The notes beneath the pieces were generated by a model. That model did not search any database, had not been told where the DNA came from, and saw only the letters and a program-made list of their open reading frames with translations. Positions 1-44,191 of a DNA stretch of 64,000 nucleotides are shown piece by piece (position 1 is the stretch's first letter; the number at the start of each line of letters is the position of its first letter). The stretch is taken from positions 1-64,000 of the IMG/VR virus record IMGVR_UViG_3300045988_100686; one strand, 5' to 3'. The DNA comes from a virus. Both the position numbers and the translations under genes were made by a program.

Positions 1-588
1 CCAACGTCAGCAATCCAACTCATTGATGGCATTCTGAAAGACATGTATACCGTGGAAGACATGGAAGACATGGAAGACACGGAAGACATGGAAGACATGG
101 AAGACATGGAAGACATGGGAAATTATGACAAATTCTCCAATGATATTACTAATGGCGCAGTATCCATGGACGACTTCGTAGATCCCTATCATAATTACAG
201 AATCAGAGATTGTATCCTCAGTATTCCTCGTTTTGCTAAGGAATTAGTCAATACAACCTGTTCTACTGTTAATGGATATGTATTGCCATCTGATGTAGAG
301 CAGATAATTCCTGCCATGCGTTATACTCCCACTGTATTGTATCTTCTTGTCATAACAGTATTACTTGACATGGGGATACCTGTGGTGTATAATGAAGTAG
401 AAATGAATGCATTTGACTACACTGAATTTAGATGTCGTCTAGCGAAGGTATTGACTTGTGCATTAGGTGCGGATAGCGATGCTGTTGCCCAAAATATTTA
501 TAGCGTTGATGAAGAACTTGACATGTATGAAGATTTTGTTGCAACCATAGATGATGCATTGCTGGTTTCATTAAAAACGTCAAATTAG
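1..588 (+). CDS. acidic (M-E-D)n tandem-repeat protein; frame is open back to base 1, so it may be 5'-partial
   Basis: Track ORF 43..588. Upstream codons 1-42 are in frame with no stop. The N-terminal MEDMEDTEDMEDMEDMED is encoded by a 9-bp tandem repeat and the protein is strongly acidic. Confidence 0.45.
   Translation, partial: PTSAIQLIDGILKDMYTVEDMEDMEDTEDMEDMEDMEDMGNYDKFSNDITNGAVSMDDFVDPYHNYRIRDCILSIPRFAKELVNTTCSTVNGYVLPSDVEQIIPAMRYTPTVLYLLVITVLLDMGIPVVYNEVEMNAFDYTEFRCRLAKVLTCALGADSDAVAQNIYSVDEELDMYEDFVATIDDALLVSLKTSN
52..120. repeat. 9-bp tandem repeat (ATGGAAGAC), about 7.7 units, with one ACGGAAGAC variant
   Basis: Read directly at 52-120; in frame within the acidic ORF. Confidence 0.9.
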
Positions 589-600
589 TGGTATAAGTAT
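589..600 (+). promoter_or_regulatory. extended -10 promoter-like motif TGGTATAAGTAT (copy 1 of 5)
   Basis: The exact 12-mer recurs at 8023, 24326, 42572 and 54825, always in plus-strand intergenic positions upstream of transcribed units. Confidence 0.5.
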
Positions 601-684
601 TATGTAGGGGAAATTAGCTATTCTCTCTACACTTCTCTCCATTGTATAGGCTTCATGGTCTACAAAATTACTATGATTGGGAAT

Positions 685-714
685 TTATTTACAGAGAGTT
701 CTCTGTACTATAAT
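685..714 (+). promoter_or_regulatory. unit A promoter-like element: TTTACA, palindromic spacer CAGAGA-GT-TCTCTG, TATAAT
   Basis: TTTACA 688-693 and TATAAT 709-714 with a 15-nt palindromic spacer. Downstream GC-rich insert with internal hairpins TTAAGAC/GTCTTAA and AGGCC/GGCCT. Confidence 0.45.
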
Positions 715-852
715 TCTTTAAGACTACGTCTTAAGTCCTCCAGCAGGCTCGCGATCCTGGATCTTCGGGCTGTACCTTCCCGTGGGTGCCAATCATAGTA
801 ATTTTTTAGGCCATGAGGCCTTACATTAAAATTAACTGTATAGCTGATATTA

Positions 853-879
853 TTTGTAGAGAGTTCTCTGCACTATTTT
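853..879 (+). promoter_or_regulatory. unit B promoter-like element: TTTGTA, palindrome, TATTTT
   Basis: Same architecture as unit A. Downstream insert contains the perfect palindrome GGAAGCGCTTCC. Confidence 0.45.
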
Positions 880-1018
880 AATACCGAGCTGCGCTCTGGT
901 CTTGAGATCCGGAAGCGCTTCCAGTATCCCGCACGCGACATCGGCATGGGAGCTATACAGTTAATTTTAGTGTATACTATTATACATGTATTAAGGTTAA
1001 CTGTGTATCTGAACACTA

Positions 1019-1045
1019 TTTGTAGAGAGTTCTCTGCATTATTAT
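1019..1045 (+). promoter_or_regulatory. unit C promoter-like element: TTTGTA, palindrome, TATTAT
   Basis: Same architecture. The insert starts GAGCTACGCTCT, matching unit B's GAGCTGCGCTCT. Confidence 0.45.
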
Positions 1046-1146
1046 TCTATAGAGCTACGCTCTAATCCAGAAAACCTGGTCCGAGAGGCTGCAGTTGACA
1101 GTGACGACCAACGAGACGGTAGGGAGATACACAGTTAACCTTAGTA

Positions 1147-1277
1147 TAAGACACCTAGTAAACAGCGCATGTATTCGATCAATTTTTCAGAGAGTTCTCT
1201 GAAATTTTTTGAATTATAGTCTCATGATTATTATTTTCGGAATACATGCGTTGTCTACTAGGTGTCTTTTTTTTTTA
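1147..1277 (+). terminator. long-stem hairpin (30-bp arms) followed by a T10 run; candidate terminator closing the array
   Basis: TAAGACACCTAGTAAACAGCGCATGTATTCG pairs with CGAATACATGCGTTGTCTACTAGGTGTCTT; a T10 run follows at 1267-1276. Confidence 0.5.
1183..1215 (+). promoter_or_regulatory. unit D promoter-like element containing CAGAGAGTTCTCTG; lacks the GC-rich insert
   Basis: Core at 1188-1201, sitting in the loop of the 30-bp inverted repeat 1147-1176/1238-1268. Confidence 0.4.
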
Positions 1278-1290
1278 CCTATTTTTTTAG

Positions 1291-1791
1291 TTATTCACGA
1301 TAACCAATAGTCCAATAAACTTCAAAGTATAGACCGGTAGTCTTGCGCCAAAGGCCAACAGTTGTACGAGCAACCATTGTACCATCTGTAGCAAACAAGC
1401 CCATTTCTTTAATGTCCTTATTATCAACGGACTCATCAACAGTATCATACAAGAAAGAGAATGTTACTGTTAGCCCGTCATCAGAAATCGTTGGCACTGT
1501 TGCACTTAATTTACGTGAACCTTGGATTTCTTTTTTTAGTGAAGTGTCTGTAATATTGGCAGCTGTGTCATCAGCGCCAAGTGCCAGTTGGCGTACAAAT
1601 GGTAGACTTTCAACATCAGAACCCCAGCCGCTCAAAAGCTTTATAATCGGTTTGCGTATGCTAAGAACAATGTTATTAGTAACATTTCCCTGTTCAACAA
1701 CATTACCATCTGCATCTTTTAAACAATAGCTTACACATCCGTGTAATTTGTCTGCTAGACCTAATTTTGATTCAGTGTTATTAATTTTCAT
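1291..1791 (-). CDS. hypothetical virion/baseplate-distal protein
   Basis: Track ORF; last gene of the minus-strand baseplate operon. Confidence 0.5.
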   Translation of the reverse strand: MKINNTESKLGLADKLHGCVSYCLKDADGNVVEQGNVTNNIVLSIRKPIIKLLSGWGSDVESLPFVRQLALGADDTAANITDTSLKKEIQGSRKLSATVPTISDDGLTVTFSFLYDTVDESVDNKDIKEMGLFATDGTMVARTTVGLWRKTTGLYFEVYWTIGYRE

Positions 1792-5555: not shown

Positions 5556-7220
5556 TTAGTTACTGATAGTTGATTTTGTATTAATAGTGTTATCCTTTGT
5601 GTTATCCACTACATTAGATGCATTACTATTAATTCTTGATGTTTTGTTGTTAAGAGTGGCAGTAGTCTTCGCCGCGGAGTTTTTGACCTGTTTCCCGATA
5701 TCTCCACCCTTCTTTTCTATAGTGCTAAGAGTGCTCTCTGCAATTTCTTCAGCATCCTTATTTAAGTCATCAGTAGAAATAGTAGCAGAACTTACCGCTC
5801 CTGCGACATTCTTAATATCATTTACACTCATCAATAAATCCGCCTTTTGAGACATGTCAGAGATAGATGCAATCGAATTTTCTAGCCCCTTATAGTCTAC
5901 ATTAATATTTTTTGGATCTACTATACCAAGAGTCTTAGGATTCAAGTTGGCGAGCATTCCCATTAAGTCTCCCAATGCTTGAGCATAACCTAGCGCCGAA
6001 AACACGAATGAAACTACCTTGTTTCCACTGCTAGTACTACCACTAGTATTTGCAAGCTCCGCGTTTGTCTGCTGGATACCTAAATTACTTTCAGTTGTAT
6101 CTTTGAGCCGCTCTATCAAACTCTTTGCAGTTGTTATTGCAACATGGATTGCATCAGCATTGTTATACGCAGATGACTGTTTAGAAACTGTTCTATATCC
6201 TGGAGGGAAAATTGAATATGATGAACGCGGATCATCCAGCGTTCCCAAACTTCCCTTTGGTGCAATCCAGACACCTGTATAGTCTAACCTTCCAGTTCCT
6301 TGAACCCCTATTTGAATAGTATCATCCGGGTTTACGTCAGCTTCAAATATTAAAATTTTCCATGCTGTATCAGTGATGACTTCAGTATATACTTTTTCTC
6401 CTACCTTTATATACGCCGTCGGGTTCGTTCCTAAAGAACGGATAGAACAAATGATTAAGCATGATGTGAATTGAGTGTACGTGAGAGGTGTACTCCAAGT
6501 GTATACTTTAGGAATAACTATAGGGTCCTCGTCACTTGGATCAACTGGGTAGTTCCCAGATACCTTGGAATCTATCTGTAAAAATCTAATAGGCAGTCCA
6601 GACTGCAGTTCTTCACTAATTTTTGCGGATGACCCTTCCTCCACCGTTTCTTCCTTCCAGGTATCAAACCTGTAAAAATAAGGGTCACCATTTCCTGTGG
6701 TATCAGTATCTTCTGTTTGTCTTACTGGAGGTCCATATTCCCCCTCTATGATACGTTTAGCAAGCTTATCTAGGTTTTCTTTGTTTTGCAAGTATTCTAG
6801 ATCTTTTTTATTTGTAGCATATCCAAGATAGAATGTTACATCTGCTTCACTACCATATTTAAGAGAATTTGTTTCAGTATACCCTAAGTTTGTAATCGGA
6901 GTGCGCCCCTGCATGTAAGTCTCGTAAGTTAGAGTTCCAACAAAGGCACTGTATTCACTGCACTGGATATCGTACCCAGATGTATCTGGTGAAATATCCA
7001 CATAACAGTCTATTGTCCAGCATAGCACTGGAGTATAGTTTGCACTGAGAGCTTTTATATCCATGGAAACTGCTGCTTCACTTTTTCGTGAAAGCATACA
7101 GTCATCACCCTTTAATTTTATGTATTTCTGCAGTAATTCAGCAAATACATAGTTGATATGCCAACGAGTTTCATCTGTTGCAGGATGTCTGATGTCTTTC
7201 ATTGGATGAATAAGAATCAT
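5556..7220 (-). CDS. hypothetical baseplate/structural protein with Ser/Thr/Asn-rich C-terminus
   Basis: 554-aa ORF in the baseplate operon. Confidence 0.5.
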   Translation of the reverse strand: MILIHPMKDIRHPATDETRWHINYVFAELLQKYIKLKGDDCMLSRKSEAAVSMDIKALSANYTPVLCWTIDCYVDISPDTSGYDIQCSEYSAFVGTLTYETYMQGRTPITNLGYTETNSLKYGSEADVTFYLGYATNKKDLEYLQNKENLDKLAKRIIEGEYGPPVRQTEDTDTTGNGDPYFYRFDTWKEETVEEGSSAKISEELQSGLPIRFLQIDSKVSGNYPVDPSDEDPIVIPKVYTWSTPLTYTQFTSCLIICSIRSLGTNPTAYIKVGEKVYTEVITDTAWKILIFEADVNPDDTIQIGVQGTGRLDYTGVWIAPKGSLGTLDDPRSSYSIFPPGYRTVSKQSSAYNNADAIHVAITTAKSLIERLKDTTESNLGIQQTNAELANTSGSTSSGNKVVSFVFSALGYAQALGDLMGMLANLNPKTLGIVDPKNINVDYKGLENSIASISDMSQKADLLMSVNDIKNVAGAVSSATISTDDLNKDAEEIAESTLSTIEKKGGDIGKQVKNSAAKTTATLNNKTSRINSNASNVVDNTKDNTINTKSTISN

Positions 7221-7981
7221 CAGTATCCCTCCTGAGCAACATTCAATGATTCTCGCATAACACTAACAACTTCATTCTTCTTTTTATTGTAAAGGTGAGG
7301 TGAAAGTTTTAAATCAACTCTTATTTTTGAGTCTGGTAGCTCCTTCTTTCCACCATAGCCTGTACTATGTTCAAGAATATATTTTCCTTGGTTATCTAAT
7401 ACATTATATGCATAGAAAAATGCTTGTTGTGTTGGATCTAGCTCTGACACACCTGGTTCAAAAGTCTGTTTGCTTTCTACTAGTTCACGTCTCAACCTAG
7501 TCGATGCATCTATTACTTTTGGTAATGACCACCCAGTGTATTCTGCCACCTCTTGATATGTAGGTTCTCTATTCAGGGCCTCGGTAAGATACTCGTTGGC
7601 CTCTGTTATAGGTTTAAATTTAAAATGAACATTCTCTGGAATACGAATAGCGTGCTGGTTATTTATGTTCTCTCTACTAACCTTCTTGAAATTGTTTATA
7701 ACATAAGTTGATAGTTTAGCTCCTTTGGCTGGAGTATAGGTATCAAATGATTTTAAGGTGATCTCTTTAAGCTCTGCCTCTACAACGGAATATGGCCGCA
7801 CATTACTTAGTTTACGTGCATTAGCAATGATTACTCCATGGAATCGTTGTAGTAAGTCCCACTTAGCTTGTTGATTACCTTGTTTGTATTTTCTCCAGAG
7901 ATCAAGATCTGACTCAGAGTAGCTATTATTAGCCTTGAGTCCTACCTTGCCTGCAGTAAATCCTGATGCTACTCTTGGCAT
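7220..7981 (-). CDS. sigma-70-family factor-like protein (regions 2.1-2.4 recognisable)
   Basis: DLLQRFHGVIIANARKL resembles region 2.1/2.2. FDTYTPAKGAKLSTYVINNFKK resembles region 2.3/2.4 (FDP-KG-KFSTYA-WWIR). It is the first gene of the minus-strand baseplate operon. Confidence 0.5.
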   Translation of the reverse strand: MPRVASGFTAGKVGLKANNSYSESDLDLWRKYKQGNQQAKWDLLQRFHGVIIANARKLSNVRPYSVVEAELKEITLKSFDTYTPAKGAKLSTYVINNFKKVSRENINNQHAIRIPENVHFKFKPITEANEYLTEALNREPTYQEVAEYTGWSLPKVIDASTRLRRELVESKQTFEPGVSELDPTQQAFFYAYNVLDNQGKYILEHSTGYGGKKELPDSKIRVDLKLSPHLYNKKKNEVVSVMRESLNVAQEGY

Positions 7982-40829: not shown

Positions 40830-40903
40830 GCGGATATAGTTCAACGGTAGAATAGTGGCCTTCCAAGCCATATATGCGGGTTCGATTCCCGTTATCCGCT
40901 CCA
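40830..40903 (+). tRNA. tRNA-Gly (anticodon TCC)
   Basis: Cloverleaf: acceptor GCGGATA/TATCCGC, anticodon loop CTTCCAA, T-loop TTCGATT, encoded CCA. Confidence 0.8.
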
Positions 40904-40967
40904 ACAAACAATATCTCCCTAGAAAGCCATGCTATTCTGGGGAGTTTTATTATTTAGGAGAAAGCGT

Positions 40968-41396
40968 ATGTCAGAAACTAACCAATCATCATTTAACACT
41001 GTAAAGTCATATTTGGTAGAAATTACCTTTAAATTTGATACAAACAGCATAATTATTTTACAAACTTTAGTAAGAGGTTTAAGTCCTCGCGATTGTCTAG
41101 GATTTGCACTAGAGAAAGCCTTGCCATTTATAGGAAACCGTGGAGTTCACTATATTACTGGAAAGCTTGTATATAATTATAGGTTTGCAAAAATTTATGC
41201 GTATAACAACGAAGGTAAACTAGTAGGTATATATAATCATACAAAGTTCAAAGATCTAGCGAGTCACATATCTAAGGTAGAAATACTAGGTGAATATGAT
41301 GACAATGATAGTCTCCCCAATAATTTAGGTGATCGAGTATATATGGATCCGGGGATTCATACAGTTAGATACAAGGAGGTTATACATGAAGACTAA
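40968..41396 (+). CDS. hypothetical protein
   Basis: ATG at 40968 after TAGGAGAAAG. Confidence 0.45.
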   Translation: MSETNQSSFNTVKSYLVEITFKFDTNSIIILQTLVRGLSPRDCLGFALEKALPFIGNRGVHYITGKLVYNYRFAKIYAYNNEGKLVGIYNHTKFKDLASHISKVEILGEYDDNDSLPNNLGDRVYMDPGIHTVRYKEVIHED

Positions 41397-41778
41397 AGTT
41401 TTGTACTTAATTAGAGGGGTTCCGGGATCCGGAAAAACAACTCTTGGTAAACAATTAATTAAAGGAACTGACGGAGTAATTTTTAGTGCCGACGATTATT
41501 TTACAGCTTCTGACGGATTTTATCAATTTGATCCAAGTAGGTTATATGAGGCTCACAGATGTTGTCAGTTAGACTGTGAGTGTGCTATGATTACTGGACT
41601 AACTCCTGTAGTTGTAGCTAACGTTTTTCATAAACGACTATATATGGAGCCTTACATTGAATATGCTAAGGAAAACGGGTATCATGTAGTGGAAATCTGT
41701 GTAAAGAGTGATTTTAAAAATATACATGGATGCCCTGAAGATAAAGTAAAGTTATTCAAAGAAACTTTCGAGTACTAA
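41387..41778 (+). CDS. P-loop NTPase/kinase (AAA_33-like)
   Basis: Walker A LIRGVPGSGKTTL; ATG at 41387 after AAGGAGG. Confidence 0.6.
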
Positions 41779-41791
41779 GGAGGAAAAGAAT

Positions 41792-42568
41792 GTGAGTAAT
41801 GTAACTGTATTTAACAATGACGTCTTTGGGGCACTAAGAACAATTGAAAGAGATGGTGAAATCTGGTTTGTAGGTAAAGAAGTTGCTGAGATGTTAGGAT
41901 ACAGTAATGCTAGAAATGCTGTAGTAAATCATGTTGATAGTGACGATAAGCTGCGTACCCAAATCGAGTACGCAGGTCAACGACGCGAAGTATCATTAAT
42001 TAACGAATCTGGACTATACTCGTTAATACTATCTAGTAAATTGCCCGCTGCTAAAGATTTCAAACGTTGGGTAACTTCAGAGGTACTTCCTAGTATTCGC
42101 AAAACAGGAAATTACAAAATTCAATCTTCAAAGGTAACACCAGAGGAACTTGAAGTACGCAAGATTGAGGCGCAGGCTAATCTAAATGCAACAAGATCAG
42201 AACAAAGTAAGTTACTTCTTTCCATAGCAGACACAGTTTCCAATGAGCTTTATAAGGAGACCCTGAAATCAGTAGCAGTAGCAACGCTTACAGGCAAAGA
42301 ATACCTGCCGCTACCAAAGATAGAATGCAACTACCATACTACTACTGAGTTAGCTACTATTTTGAGCAAAAAGTTCAATAGGAAAGTGTCAGCCAACATA
42401 GTAGGAAGGCTAACAACCAAAAATAATCTCAAAACGGAAGAATACGCAGTAAAAGTATGGGATAAAGCAAAATTCAGTAATAAACAGATAGAATCTTACA
42501 GATATAAAGATACTGTCATTGAACCTCTTTGTAAAGCTTACGAAGTATACTTACAAATTCATTCCTAA
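41792..42568 (+). CDS. Bro-N domain protein (antirepressor-like)
   Basis: VFGALRTIERDGEIWFVGKEVAEMLGY...FKRWVTSEVLPSIRKTG. Confidence 0.7.
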   Translation: MSNVTVFNNDVFGALRTIERDGEIWFVGKEVAEMLGYSNARNAVVNHVDSDDKLRTQIEYAGQRREVSLINESGLYSLILSSKLPAAKDFKRWVTSEVLPSIRKTGNYKIQSSKVTPEELEVRKIEAQANLNATRSEQSKLLLSIADTVSNELYKETLKSVAVATLTGKEYLPLPKIECNYHTTTELATILSKKFNRKVSANIVGRLTTKNNLKTEEYAVKVWDKAKFSNKQIESYRYKDTVIEPLCKAYEVYLQIHS

Positions 42569-42571
42569 AAT

Positions 42572-42583
42572 TGGTATAAGTAT
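42572..42583 (+). promoter_or_regulatory. extended -10 motif TGGTATAAGTAT (copy 4), with TTACAA 18 nt upstream
   Basis: Exact motif match. Confidence 0.45.
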
Positions 42584-42592
42584 AATGTAAAA

Positions 42593-42664
42593 GAATACGT
42601 AGATCAAGCGGTAAGATCACCCTGGTACCTGCGGAGATCCGATGTTCGAGTCATCGGCGTATTC
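42593..42664 (+). ncRNA. tRNA-like element (pseudo-tRNA) in the 5' leader of the 42695 gene
   Basis: Perfect acceptor pair GAATACG/CGTATTC, D-arm GATC/GATC and T-arm CCGATG-TTCGAGT-CATCGG. The anticodon arm is irregular (CCCTG/CGGAG with a C-A mismatch, loop GTACCTG). Confidence 0.4.
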
Positions 42665-42694
42665 TTTTATTTTAGTTAAAGGAGGAAAAAATAA

Positions 42695-42946
42695 ATGTTT
42701 ACGAAGAAACAATATGAAGAATTTGAGGCACTTACGACTCCCGTAATCAACTGGATTAAAAGCTTAGACGATCCGGATGTATTAGTAACTATTGATGGAG
42801 CAGAAGCTGTATTACACGTTCCTCAACTTGTGAACATGGATTACGAATTTGAGGAAATGACTAAGGACCTTGATGAATTTTTAGATAGCAAAAAGGATGA
42901 AGATCCTAAAAAAGAAGCAGATAAACCGTCTACCATTTTAAACTAA
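42695..42946 (+). CDS. small acidic hypothetical protein
   Basis: AAAGGAGG ribosome-binding site. Confidence 0.5.
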   Translation: MFTKKQYEEFEALTTPVINWIKSLDDPDVLVTIDGAEAVLHVPQLVNMDYEFEEMTKDLDEFLDSKKDEDPKKEADKPSTILN

Positions 42947-42968
42947 GCATAAAACGGGGGAAATTACA

Positions 42969-43550
42969 ATGAAAACACACTTAAAGACACTAATAGCAAT
43001 TATCTGTGGATTAATTATCTGTGTAGTAGCTTTCAACCTTGTGAATAATAATTCAACACCAAAAGTGATACCACCAAAGGTACTACAAGATAACTTAACA
43101 AATTCCCAGATATTTTGTATGATGGGATCATATAATTTGCGTGATGAATCGTGGCACGATGACGTGATCTTGTCACCTAAGAATTATCAATTCGTAGAAA
43201 AAGACGAATTTATTAGATATCTTAGAACAGCCAAGTCATCCTCTATCCTAAACGCAGATGAACAAACCACCTTAAGAAATGACATAATTAAACTTGCTAA
43301 GTATGCTGGACGTCAAGTAACTACTAAAAACAAAGATGACCATGAGGTTACTGATTATTTTTATCTCTATGCTAATGCTGGACAGCTCTATCAAGTAACA
43401 TTTAAAGACGGTTGTATATTTAAGGCAGTCCAAACTACAGAAAAGGGATACATCTCGTTTGAGATAGCCCCTAACTTAATGTTATCACATGAATGGAAAG
43501 CGTCACCTAAATTATTACACAAATTAAACAACGAATACTGCGGCTGGTAG
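42969..43550 (+). CDS. membrane-anchored hypothetical protein
   Basis: N-terminal TM LIAIICGLIICVVAF. Confidence 0.5.
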   Translation: MKTHLKTLIAIICGLIICVVAFNLVNNNSTPKVIPPKVLQDNLTNSQIFCMMGSYNLRDESWHDDVILSPKNYQFVEKDEFIRYLRTAKSSSILNADEQTTLRNDIIKLAKYAGRQVTTKNKDDHEVTDYFYLYANAGQLYQVTFKDGCIFKAVQTTEKGYISFEIAPNLMLSHEWKASPKLLHKLNNEYCGW

Positions 43551-43615
43551 GTATAATTTTAGTAAAGGCAGTGTCGTTATTCAGAGGCTTTTCACAAAAA
43601 GTACATAATTTAAAG

Positions 43616-43644
43616 TTGACATTTGCTGTGCTTCTTATTATAAT
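43616..43644 (+). promoter_or_regulatory. sigma-A-type promoter TTGACA-17-TATAAT for the tRNA cluster
   Basis: Perfect consensus; the first tRNA starts about 30 nt downstream. Confidence 0.75.
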
Positions 43645-43673
43645 ATATGTATGAAACACAGTTTATCTTTTAA

Positions 43674-43748
43674 GGTTCAGTAGCTCAGTGGAAGAGCAGG
43701 GTACTCATAATACTCTAGTCCTGGGTTCAAACCCCAGCTGAACCTCCA
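43674..43748 (+). tRNA. tRNA-Met/Ile2 (anticodon CAT)
   Basis: Acceptor GGTTCAG/CTGAACC, anticodon loop CTCATAA, encoded CCA. Confidence 0.8.
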
Positions 43749-43775
43749 AATTTGTTAATCACATTTAACATAAAT

Positions 43776-43860
43776 GCCGCCTTGGTGGAATTGGCAGACA
43801 CGCTAGACTTAGGATCTAGTGGATAATTCCGTAAGGGTTCGAGTCCCTTAGGCGGCACCA
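43776..43860 (+). tRNA. tRNA-Leu (anticodon TAG), long variable arm
   Basis: Acceptor GCCGCCT/AGGCGGC, anticodon stem CTAGA/TCTAG with loop CTTAGGA, encoded CCA. Confidence 0.8.
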
Positions 43861-43864
43861 ATTT

Positions 43865-43939
43865 CGGGCGTTGGTGTAATTGGTAACACTTCGGTCTCCA
43901 AAACCGACATTCTAAGTTCGAGTCTTAGACGCTTCGGCC
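43865..43939 (+). tRNA. tRNA-Trp (anticodon CCA), acceptor end noncanonical
   Basis: D-arm GTGT/ACAC, anticodon stem TCGGT/ACCGA with loop CTCCAAA, T-arm CTAAG-TTCGAGT-CTTAG. The acceptor pairs imperfectly (C1:C72) and the 3' end abuts tRNA-Pro. Confidence 0.55.
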
Positions 43940-43941
43940 AT

Positions 43942-44018
43942 CGGGATGTAGCGCAGTTTGGTAGCGCACGTGATTTGGGATCACGGTGTCGCAGGTTCAA
44001 ATCCTGTCATCCCGACCA
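43942..44018 (+). tRNA. tRNA-Pro (anticodon TGG)
   Basis: Acceptor CGGGATG/CATCCCG, anticodon loop TTTGGGA, encoded CCA. Confidence 0.8.
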
Positions 44019-44022
44019 CTAT

Positions 44023-44098
44023 GCTCCTGTGGCGCAATTGGCAGCGCAAGTGTTTTGTAAACATTAGGTTGTAGGTTCAAGTCCTATCAGGAGCTCCA
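44023..44098 (+). tRNA. tRNA-Thr (anticodon TGT)
   Basis: Acceptor GCTCCTG/CAGGAGC, anticodon loop TTTGTAA, encoded CCA. Confidence 0.8.
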
Positions 44099-44101
44099 TA
44101 C

Positions 44102-44191
44102 GGAAAGGTGGTCGAGTGGTTTAAGACAGCAGTCTTGAAAACTGCCGAAGACACAAATCTTCCGTGGGTTCAAATCCCACCCTTTCCGCCA
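44102..44191 (+). tRNA. tRNA-Ser (anticodon TGA), long variable arm
   Basis: Acceptor GGAAAGG/CCTTTCC, anticodon stem GCAGT/ACTGC with loop CTTGAAA, encoded CCA. Confidence 0.8.

Follow-up and report, generated by a model that had tools for sequence, protein, structure and literature searches.

The 702-bp noncoding gap at positions 589 to 1290 of the window, by which we mean the whole 64-kb stretch of DNA analyzed here, is probably a naturally occurring array, carried by a phage, of retron-like RNAs that serve as templates for an adjacent reverse transcriptase (RT) of the retron family. The array has a regular anatomy, its hairpins covary and bear the marks of plus-strand RNA, it is strictly linked to an RT gene, and that RT has its closest affinity to retrons. 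Since a retron-type RT is linked to the array on the same strand, we call the units retron-like msr-msd units. The initial annotation had found no element type that it could name: this stands as far as tRNA genes and Rfam families are concerned, and the units could be named once the RT gene, which lies beyond the left edge of the window, had been seen.

The gap lies between convergent open reading frames (ORFs), 43..588 on the plus strand and 1291..1791 on the minus strand. It holds no ORF longer than 47 amino acids (aa), and the small ORFs present there cross the stem arms; a small-ORF reading was rejected on both counts. A 27-mer family (TTTGTAGAGAGTTCTCTGCACTATTTT) begins at positions 688, 853, 1019, and 1184 (period, 165/166/165), which agrees with the four units about 165 bp apart described in the initial annotation. 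The conserved 13-mer palindrome reported there, AGAGAGTTCTCTG, has exactly four copies in 64 kb, all within the array; with up to 2 mismatches it gave 8 matches versus 1.8 expected, a count reached by 0 of 100 shuffles. Around each copy of the first hairpin (SL1) stands an inverted repeat of its own of 24 to 33 bp, and these enclosing repeats proved to be longer than originally noted (Table 1). The inserts of units A to C are indeed GC rich (53 to 61% GC, versus 38.4% for the window), and the T10 run is where it had been placed, after the last repeat.

When folded as plus-strand RNA, the gap gave −274.5 kcal/mol (z = −17.4) and exactly the four long stems; this fold and the covarying hairpins described below uphold the earlier picture of four long stems, each enclosing a small structured RNA. 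The parts of a unit, in 5′-to-3′ order, are a long arm, a G, an AU-rich linker, SL1, a U-rich linker, a second hairpin (SL2), a GC-rich segment, and the 3′ arm. No Rfam covariance model, CRISPR repeats and tRNA included, matched the array region at its gathering score, and with E values up to 10 only chance matches to long hairpins appeared; ARAGORN found neither a tRNA nor a tmRNA in the same region.

Table 1. Features in and next to the array (window coordinates)
Feature	Positions	Strand	Remarks
Accessory gene, 3′ part (195 codons)	1..588	+	Between RT gene and array
Promoter-like 11-mer TGGTATAAGTA, extended −10 type	589..599	+	Probable array transcript start
5′ leader hairpin of array transcript	603..631	+	Predicted in RNA fold
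Unit A	648..821	+	5′ arm 648-680; 3′ arm 789-821; arms 33 nt, 91%
Unit A interior	G681; SL1 690-707; SL2 ~717-735	+	SL1 apex GAGUUC; SL2 loop UAC
Unit A variable segment	736-788	+	GC-rich, 64% GC
Unit A covariance-model match	681-738	+	E 5e-10
Unit B	822..974	+	5′ arm 822-845; 3′ arm 951-974; arms 24 nt, 96%
Unit B interior	G846; SL1 855-872; SL2 ~886-896; variable segment 897-950	+	SL2 loop UGC
Unit B covariance-model match	846-903	+	E 1.6e-9
Unit C	987..1148	+	5′ arm 987-1010; 3′ arm 1125-1148; 24 pairs including G-U
Unit C interior	G1011; SL1 1021-1038; SL2 1050-1064; variable segment 1065-1124	+	SL2 loop UAC
Unit C covariance-model match	1012-1069	+	E 1.1e-9
Unit D, short terminal unit	1148..1268	+	5′ arm 1148-1176; 3′ arm 1240-1268; 29 nt, 93%
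Unit D interior	G1177; SL1 1185-1204; AU-rich 1205-1239	+	Without GC-rich segment
Unit D covariance-model match		+	E 0.005, though outside seed alignment
T10 run, right after unit D stem	1267..1276	+	With stem resembles intrinsic terminator

We looked for relatives in IMG/VR, ENA, and Logan via two neighboring tail-module proteins, of 166 aa and 605 aa, and found them on phage contigs of about 95 to 169 kb. At the corresponding position, these phages have a gap of 530 to 1270 bp in which the architecture is kept and the sequence is not; the arrangement that the initial annotation had expected in related genomes, a hairpin within its own inverted repeats, was present there in diverged sequence. 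Four features are common to the gaps: TGGTATAAGTA with a leader hairpin, stem-closed units, a hairpin with the apex GANUUC, and a final stem with a T run. Searches of other kinds returned nothing: GenBank phages gave no match to the array by blastn or to the neighboring 605-aa protein by tblastn, the exact two-copy 13-mer pattern had none in IMG/VR, and alignment of the neighbor protein against JGI metagenome contigs found no relative. The carriers are uncultured phages of about 150 kb that have tRNAs of their own and a gene resembling that of an RNA polymerase.

The array lies downstream of an RVT_1 gene (404 to 567 aa) and one accessory ORF, on the same strand. We saw this linkage in the lineages with enough flanking sequence (L014/L015, L016, L018/L019, L020, L001/L002, L007, L023, L025, L034, L123/L124, and L125), and in L028, whose tail module is the same, both the RT and the array are lacking. 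The order in L125 is terminase large subunit, a 219-aa gene, the RT (534 aa), the accessory gene (216 aa), the array, and convergent tail/baseplate genes. The L125 accessory protein (P0147), which directly follows the 534-aa RVT_1 protein, is a full-length homologue of the accessory protein of the window, with 97% identity. The accessory ORF was present in every case; its product is 168 to 550 aa long, acidic, and fast evolving, matched no Pfam, PHROG, PADLOC, or NCBIfam family, and gave a low-confidence AlphaFold model (pLDDT 41). The number of units per RT ranges from 3 to 8: the window has three full units and one short unit, L023 and L025 have four, and L034 has about eight SL1 hairpins.

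Exact copies of TGGTATAAGTA stand at positions 589, 8023, 24326, 42572, and 54825 of the window, 5/5 on the plus strand, and a tRNA gene begins 10 nt downstream of the copy at 42572. The 11-mer also heads the corresponding gap in L001, L007, L023, L025, L034, L123, and L125, and in L123 and L125 it additionally precedes the operon carrying the RT. Because TGGTATAAGTA recurs as a plus-strand promoter-like sequence and heads the RT operon in L123 and L125, the array is probably a single transcript of about 670 nt, read from the promoter at 589 and extending from about position 605 to T10, much as the initial annotation had proposed. A leader hairpin stands at the equal position in the relatives, in other sequence, and in every relative the last long stem is followed by a T run. 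Unit D, which is without a template segment, is probably a terminator or regulator. In the RT-operon leader of L123 and L125, an SL1-like hairpin with the apex GAUUUC comes after TGGTATAAGTA and is in turn followed by T9, which hints at control of the RT operon by the same type of hairpin.

Next, we evaluated the RNA structure by covariation, using 24 aligned units that represent 7 lineages. The stem of SL1 varies in sequence while its apex, GANUUC, is fixed in the seven other phage lineages; SL1 was paired in 99.4% of alignment cells, with both-sided changes in 6/7 pairs. The apical helix of SL2, whose loop is UAC or UGC (a YRC-type triloop), was paired in 85.5% of cells, with both-sided changes in 3/3 pairs. 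The overall covariation score was 0.60, versus 0.26 in shuffles and at most 0.17 with the partners slid. The terminal arms have wholly different sequences between units and lineages and yet are complementary over 15 to 35 bp; arms matched to wrong partners paired at only 43%. Read on the plus strand, which is also the strand of the RT, the arms contain 17 G-U pairs versus 4 A-C mismatches, and this excess indicates that the structure is selected in plus-strand RNA. Moreover, the SL1 apex is asymmetric and does not vary, the stem below it covaries, and G-U pairs occur there only when the plus strand is read; an RNA hairpin behaves in this way, and a double-stranded DNA operator does not.

The 5′ domain of the units folds better than expected (mean z = −2.6, P = 6e-12) at 36% GC. 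A covariance model, R1, was built on this domain only, with unit D outside the seed. In 223 kb (window and loci), the arrays were the only R1 matches. At default filters, R1 had no match in L034, the most distant lineage. The dinucleotide GA comes right after the 5′ arm in 4/4 window units and in 13/22 units over all lineages, and a G stands just before the 3′ arm in 14/22. In the most distant lineages, L025 and L034, this G behind the 5′ arm is not universal, which counts against the retron-template reading.

We then compared the RT with known RT families. It matched the PADLOC model RT_III-A (E value = 5.7e-48) and the NCBIfam model retron_St85_RT (E value = 7e-46) far better than group II intron RT (1e-5) or Drt2 (3.5e-8). 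Its best twelve sequence matches in the PDB were all retron RTs (Ec78, St85-family, Ec67, Kva2, Ec86, and Ec83), and its AlphaFold model (pLDDT 81.5) had retron RTs as its 18 best Foldseek matches, ahead of group II, G2L4, DRT9, and DRT2. By sequence and predicted fold, the RT is thus of the retron type. Its scores lie under the curated NCBIfam cut-offs (235 bits for retron_St85_RT), a point against the retron-template reading.

A further point against that reading is the absence of the NAXXH motif of region X, which is replaced by I-x-[DE]-A-x-x-x in 7 lineages; in the RT P0033, ALEVL stands opposite NAAAH of Ec78. NAXXH, with H as its most conserved residue, defines canonical retron RTs and is thought to be important for initiation, and the region Y triplet is VTG in RT7, with G as the most conserved residue (Mestre et al., PMC7736814). 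In the phage RT family, the region Y triplet is VTG, PTG, FTG, FSG, or LEG, with an invariant G; RYADD is invariant as well, and the C-terminal part of the RT bears an additional, conserved domain of some 230 aa. The family forms a discrete group: full-length matches with E values of <1e-53 came from about 30 clusters, after which come generic retron RTs that match in the RT domain only (E values of ~1e-36). There were no full-length members in GTDB, where each of 185,579 species of bacteria and archaea was represented by a single genome and the scan returned generic retron RTs only (at most 39% identity, in the RT domain alone), and none in 50,697 GenBank phage records. The only name that members bear in their sources is "hypothetical protein."

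The segment between SL2 and the 3′ arm, our candidate template, differs in character from the hairpins before it. Over 25 units, the 50 nt adjoining the 3′ arm have a mean GC content of 58% and fold no better than shuffles (z = +0.42). The variable segments of the window gave z values of −0.15 to +0.96 as DNA and of +0.6 to +1.9 as RNA, and the RNA of the unit B segment folded worse than 199/200 shuffles. Accordingly, the long stable msd stem-loop of canonical retrons was absent in the fold tests of the 25 units, which also counts against the retron-template reading. The variable segment is the least conserved part of the unit: in comparison with L014, the variable segments are 63 to 80% identical, versus 90 to 94% for the scaffold and 91% for coding DNA, and in the L125 array, 98% identical to that of the window, 6/11 substitutions fall in the roughly 160 nt of variable segments. 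This divergence fits a segment under little sequence constraint whose GC-rich, unstructured character is maintained. Neutral drift of a segment constrained in its composition could also explain it, and by itself it is no proof of diversifying selection.

From these data, we infer the following course of events. The array would be transcribed on the plus strand from TGGTATAAGTA, ending at the unit D stem and T10. Each unit would fold separately, with its long inverted repeat as a terminal stem of the a1/a2 type, and RNase III could possibly cut the long stems and separate the units. SL1 and SL2 would form an msr-like protein-recognition domain that is bound by the RT; a retron msr has one to three short hairpins, and both of these show compensatory changes. 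Priming would occur at or near the G atop the terminal stem (681, 846, 1011, and 1177, following the 5′ arms), and the RT would then copy the GC-rich, unstructured 50 to 60 nt adjoining the 3′ arm as its template. A single RT may in this way produce three different small single-stranded cDNAs, and up to about eight in the relatives. Such a scheme is feasible because engineered tandem msr-msd arrays, expressed as a single transcript, function with one retron RT (doi 10.1101/2023.07.17.549397). The position of the phage array, downstream of the RT and with its own promoter, where typical retrons have their ncRNA upstream, counts against the retron-template reading.

We weighed several alternatives to retron-like template RNAs. 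In the first, which we consider unlikely, the units are RT-associated RNAs and not retron-type templates: they would serve as a scaffold or regulator of the RT, with SL1 as an autoregulatory or attenuator site, or would be copied with other priming, without a 2′-5′ branch at the G. Such RNAs would suit an RT in which NAXXH is missing and a conserved C-terminal domain is added, as well as units that are without an msd hairpin; they would also suit the SL1-like hairpin with T9 in the RT-operon leader of L125 and L123 and the presence of SL1 in unit D, which has no template segment. Against them stand the YADD and region Y xTG that the RT retains and the look of the units, whose terminal stem, G, short hairpins, and accessible segment at the 3′ arm are those of a retron template.

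That the array works without the RT is, in our judgment, improbable. It would then be a precursor, as first proposed in the initial annotation: a read-through RNA with the stems as RNase III sites, from which small regulatory RNAs acting on their own are released. The near-perfect stems of 24 to 33 bp would suffice for RNase III, and the array is bracketed by a conserved promoter and terminator. The strict linkage to a retron-type RT, and the absence of the array where the RT is absent, argue otherwise, as do the inserts: these supposed functional parts are the least conserved between close relatives, and they are without complementarity to the 64-kb window or to 21.6 kb of L123.

Readings at the DNA level are very improbable, whether the units are taken for promoter switches that invert, for insertions resembling MITEs, or for cruciforms belonging to an origin of replication or packaging. 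Inverted repeats do flank each promoter-like segment, and the terminase and tail modules are next to the site. Each unit, however, has arms of its own, which leaves no common recombinase site; the SL1 center is asymmetric and constant in orientation, with no inverted orientation among about a dozen relatives; the same site is filled in all lineages by arms of wholly different sequence, unlike copies of a MITE; and the excess of G-U pairs over A-C mismatches points to single-stranded plus-strand RNA.

We give still less credence to four strong promoters whose spacer palindrome is the operator of a dimeric regulator, a possibility raised in the initial annotation. In the lineage of the window, the palindrome of units A to C does stand between TTTACA/TTTGTA and TATAAT-like hexamers, with a spacer of 15 bp instead of 16 to 18 bp, and a sigma-70 scan did not call the units. 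The hexamers are absent in L001, L007, L023, L025, and L034, where the hairpin is retained, its stem altered by compensatory changes and its apex fixed, and the motif occurs nowhere else in 64 kb.

A diversity-generating arrangement of the DGR type, in which a template repeat has a near-identical variable repeat in a target gene close by and the two differ at adenines, was rejected: BLAST found no similar or complementary copy of any insert on either strand of the 64-kb window or of 21.6 kb of L123, which leaves a DGR template/target pair unsupported. Specific tests contradict each of the operator/promoter, inverton, MITE, origin, and DGR readings. With the RT linkage found, we also dropped readings of the CRISPR-like, type III antitoxin-like, Y-RNA-like, N4-type hairpin promoter, and phi29 pRNA-like kinds.

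As to what an array of retron-like templates would do for the phage, our best guess is early-expressed counter-defense or exclusion of competitors, with cDNAs or RNA-cDNA hybrids as decoys; more broadly, the role could be counter-defense, exclusion of rival phages, or a link to the neighboring packaging and tail modules. A bolder proposal, which we put forward tentatively and regard as doubtful, is that phages use reverse transcription offensively: a single retron-derived RT would read the natural multiplex array and make free, unstructured, GC-rich single-stranded cDNAs (or RNA-cDNA hybrids) early in infection. The fast-evolving template segments would carry the specificity, and the target would be host immunity or rival phages, against which they would act as decoys, sponges, or guides. 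If this offensive reading is true, it would amount to a programmable nucleic-acid counter-defense distinct from the toxin-antitoxin logic of bacterial retrons.

Known retrons protect bacteria against phages, have a single ncRNA for each RT, and produce branched multicopy single-stranded DNA (msDNA). If the array is what we propose, retron-type reverse transcription is also put to use by phages, and templates in arrays occur naturally. The literature that we searched, the coverage of which was incomplete, holds no description of natural phage retron arrays and describes arrayed templates only as engineered multitrons. The template segments are unstructured and tolerate almost any sequence, and the recognition hairpins are short and well defined, which is what the production of custom single-stranded DNA inside cells calls for. 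The array family also makes testable the uses of retron cDNA outside toxin-antitoxin control and initiation by an RT without NAXXH.

Among known systems, the DRT2/DRT9 defense RTs resemble the phage system in pairing an RT with a structured ncRNA that has a short template region. They differ in having a single ncRNA, upstream of the RT and without a terminal a1/a2 stem, and the sequence similarity is far weaker (3.5e-8 for Drt2, versus ~1e-46 for retron models). RNase III processing stems, as in rRNA operons and T7 early RNA, are long stems formed from the sequences flanking a functional RNA, and Correia/NEMIS-type MITEs have terminal inverted repeats as well as promoter-like hexamers and are cleaved by RNase III. 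Unlike in either of these, the arms of the phage array are unique to each unit, and its site is syntenic across phages and tied to an RT. Phage DGRs likewise have a phage RT near tail genes and a noncoding template RNA with an unstructured template segment. In the array, in contrast, there is no variable-repeat copy in the 64-kb window or 21.6 kb of L123, the inserts are A poor and not A rich, the RT matches retron models and not other RT classes, and no Avd-like gene was recognized.

Bacterial retrons (Ec78/Eco7, Ec86/Eco1, the St85 family, and type III-A) are closer. Their RTs are the nearest to the phage RT by profile, PDB sequence, and predicted fold, and in both systems an ncRNA closed by terminal inverted repeats, with one or two short hairpins before the template region, is contiguous and co-oriented with the RT and accompanied by an extra adjacent gene. 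The conserved branching G of retrons, at the inner end of the 5′ arm, has a candidate counterpart in the G that follows this arm in the phage units. The differences lie in number and form. Bacterial retrons have one ncRNA per RT where the phages have 3 to 8, and a long msd hairpin where the phages have an unstructured GC-rich template region; the phage array follows the RT and the accessory gene and has its own promoter, and its terminal stems reach 15 to 35 bp. The phage RT is without NAXXH and has the C-terminal domain of about 230 aa, and the phage accessory protein has no known effector domain, where retron effectors carry a recognizable toxic or enzymatic one. The bacterial systems lie in defense islands or P2/P4-type prophages, whereas the carriers here are large phages.

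The multitrons of Gonzalez-Delgado et al. (doi 10.1101/2023.07.17.549397) share with the phage array, as we interpret it, tandem msr-msd units in one transcript that give several cDNAs with one RT. They are laboratory constructs made from retron Eco1, whereas the phage arrangement is natural and conserved across lineages. If our reading holds, the array is a natural counterpart of engineered retron arrays, in a family that is unannotated in public data.

The promoter 11-mer TGGTATAAGTA, at which the array transcript probably starts, is present in five exact copies in the window. These copies are usually followed by WWATGTAG, all five lack a -35 hexamer, and the element resembles an extended -10 class of phage promoters. 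At 42572 the 11-mer lies 10 nt upstream of a tRNA-Gly(acc) gene, whose Rfam tRNA score stays below the gathering cut-off. Because the window encodes a sigma-factor-like protein and a 1,371-aa protein that has the Rpb2 and Rpb1 domains of RNA polymerase is found in the same phage lineage (related contig L123, 1-1179), the phage may have its own transcription machinery.

The 11-mer is also present in the leader of the operon carrying the retron-type reverse transcriptase (RT) gene in L123 and in L125, a contig whose array is 98% identical to that of the window. In both leaders it is followed by a hairpin, AGAGATATGAGATTTCTCATGTCTCT, similar to SL1 of the array units, with the apex GATTTC, and then by T9. 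This hairpin with its T-run resembles a terminator or attenuator, and it may be a site at which the RT controls its own operon. In L004, another related contig, the leader includes a motif similar to SL2 (TAGGAC TAC G...), and a terminator-like hairpin forms its end; this region could be either a regulatory leader or one more noncoding RNA unit.

Features of the window and of related phage contigs
Feature	Location	Strand	Remarks
TGGTATAAGTA, five exact copies	window 589, 8023, 24326, 42572, 54825	+	
9-nt tandem repeat GAAGACATG, ~7 copies	window 50-115		within accessory gene
Sigma-factor-like protein gene	window 7220-7981	-	phrog_351
Eight clustered tRNA genes	window 40830-44191		
tRNA-Gly(acc)	window 42593-42665		ARAGORN call
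RT-operon leader	L125 1174-1224; L123 9255-9306		11-mer, SL1-like hairpin, T9
Structured leader, ~300 nt	L004 12480-12800	-	upstream of 220-aa gene-RT operon; L001/L004 lineage
Short terminator hairpin	L028 5047-5151		sole occupant of array site

In the accessory gene, which lies between the RT gene and the array, the tandem repeat GAAGACATG encodes an acidic MED repeat. Assemblies seem to break at this tract, since a 99%-related contig (L021) stops within it, at window position 89. Several metagenome contigs (L022, L024 and L027) end within the array itself, and in one of them (L024) sequencing-adapter sequence is present where the contig breaks off. Such ends could be due to the long stems, or to variable segments that differ between strains. 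The related phage L028 shares the baseplate/tail module and is without the RT, the accessory gene and the array; it provides a natural empty-site control.
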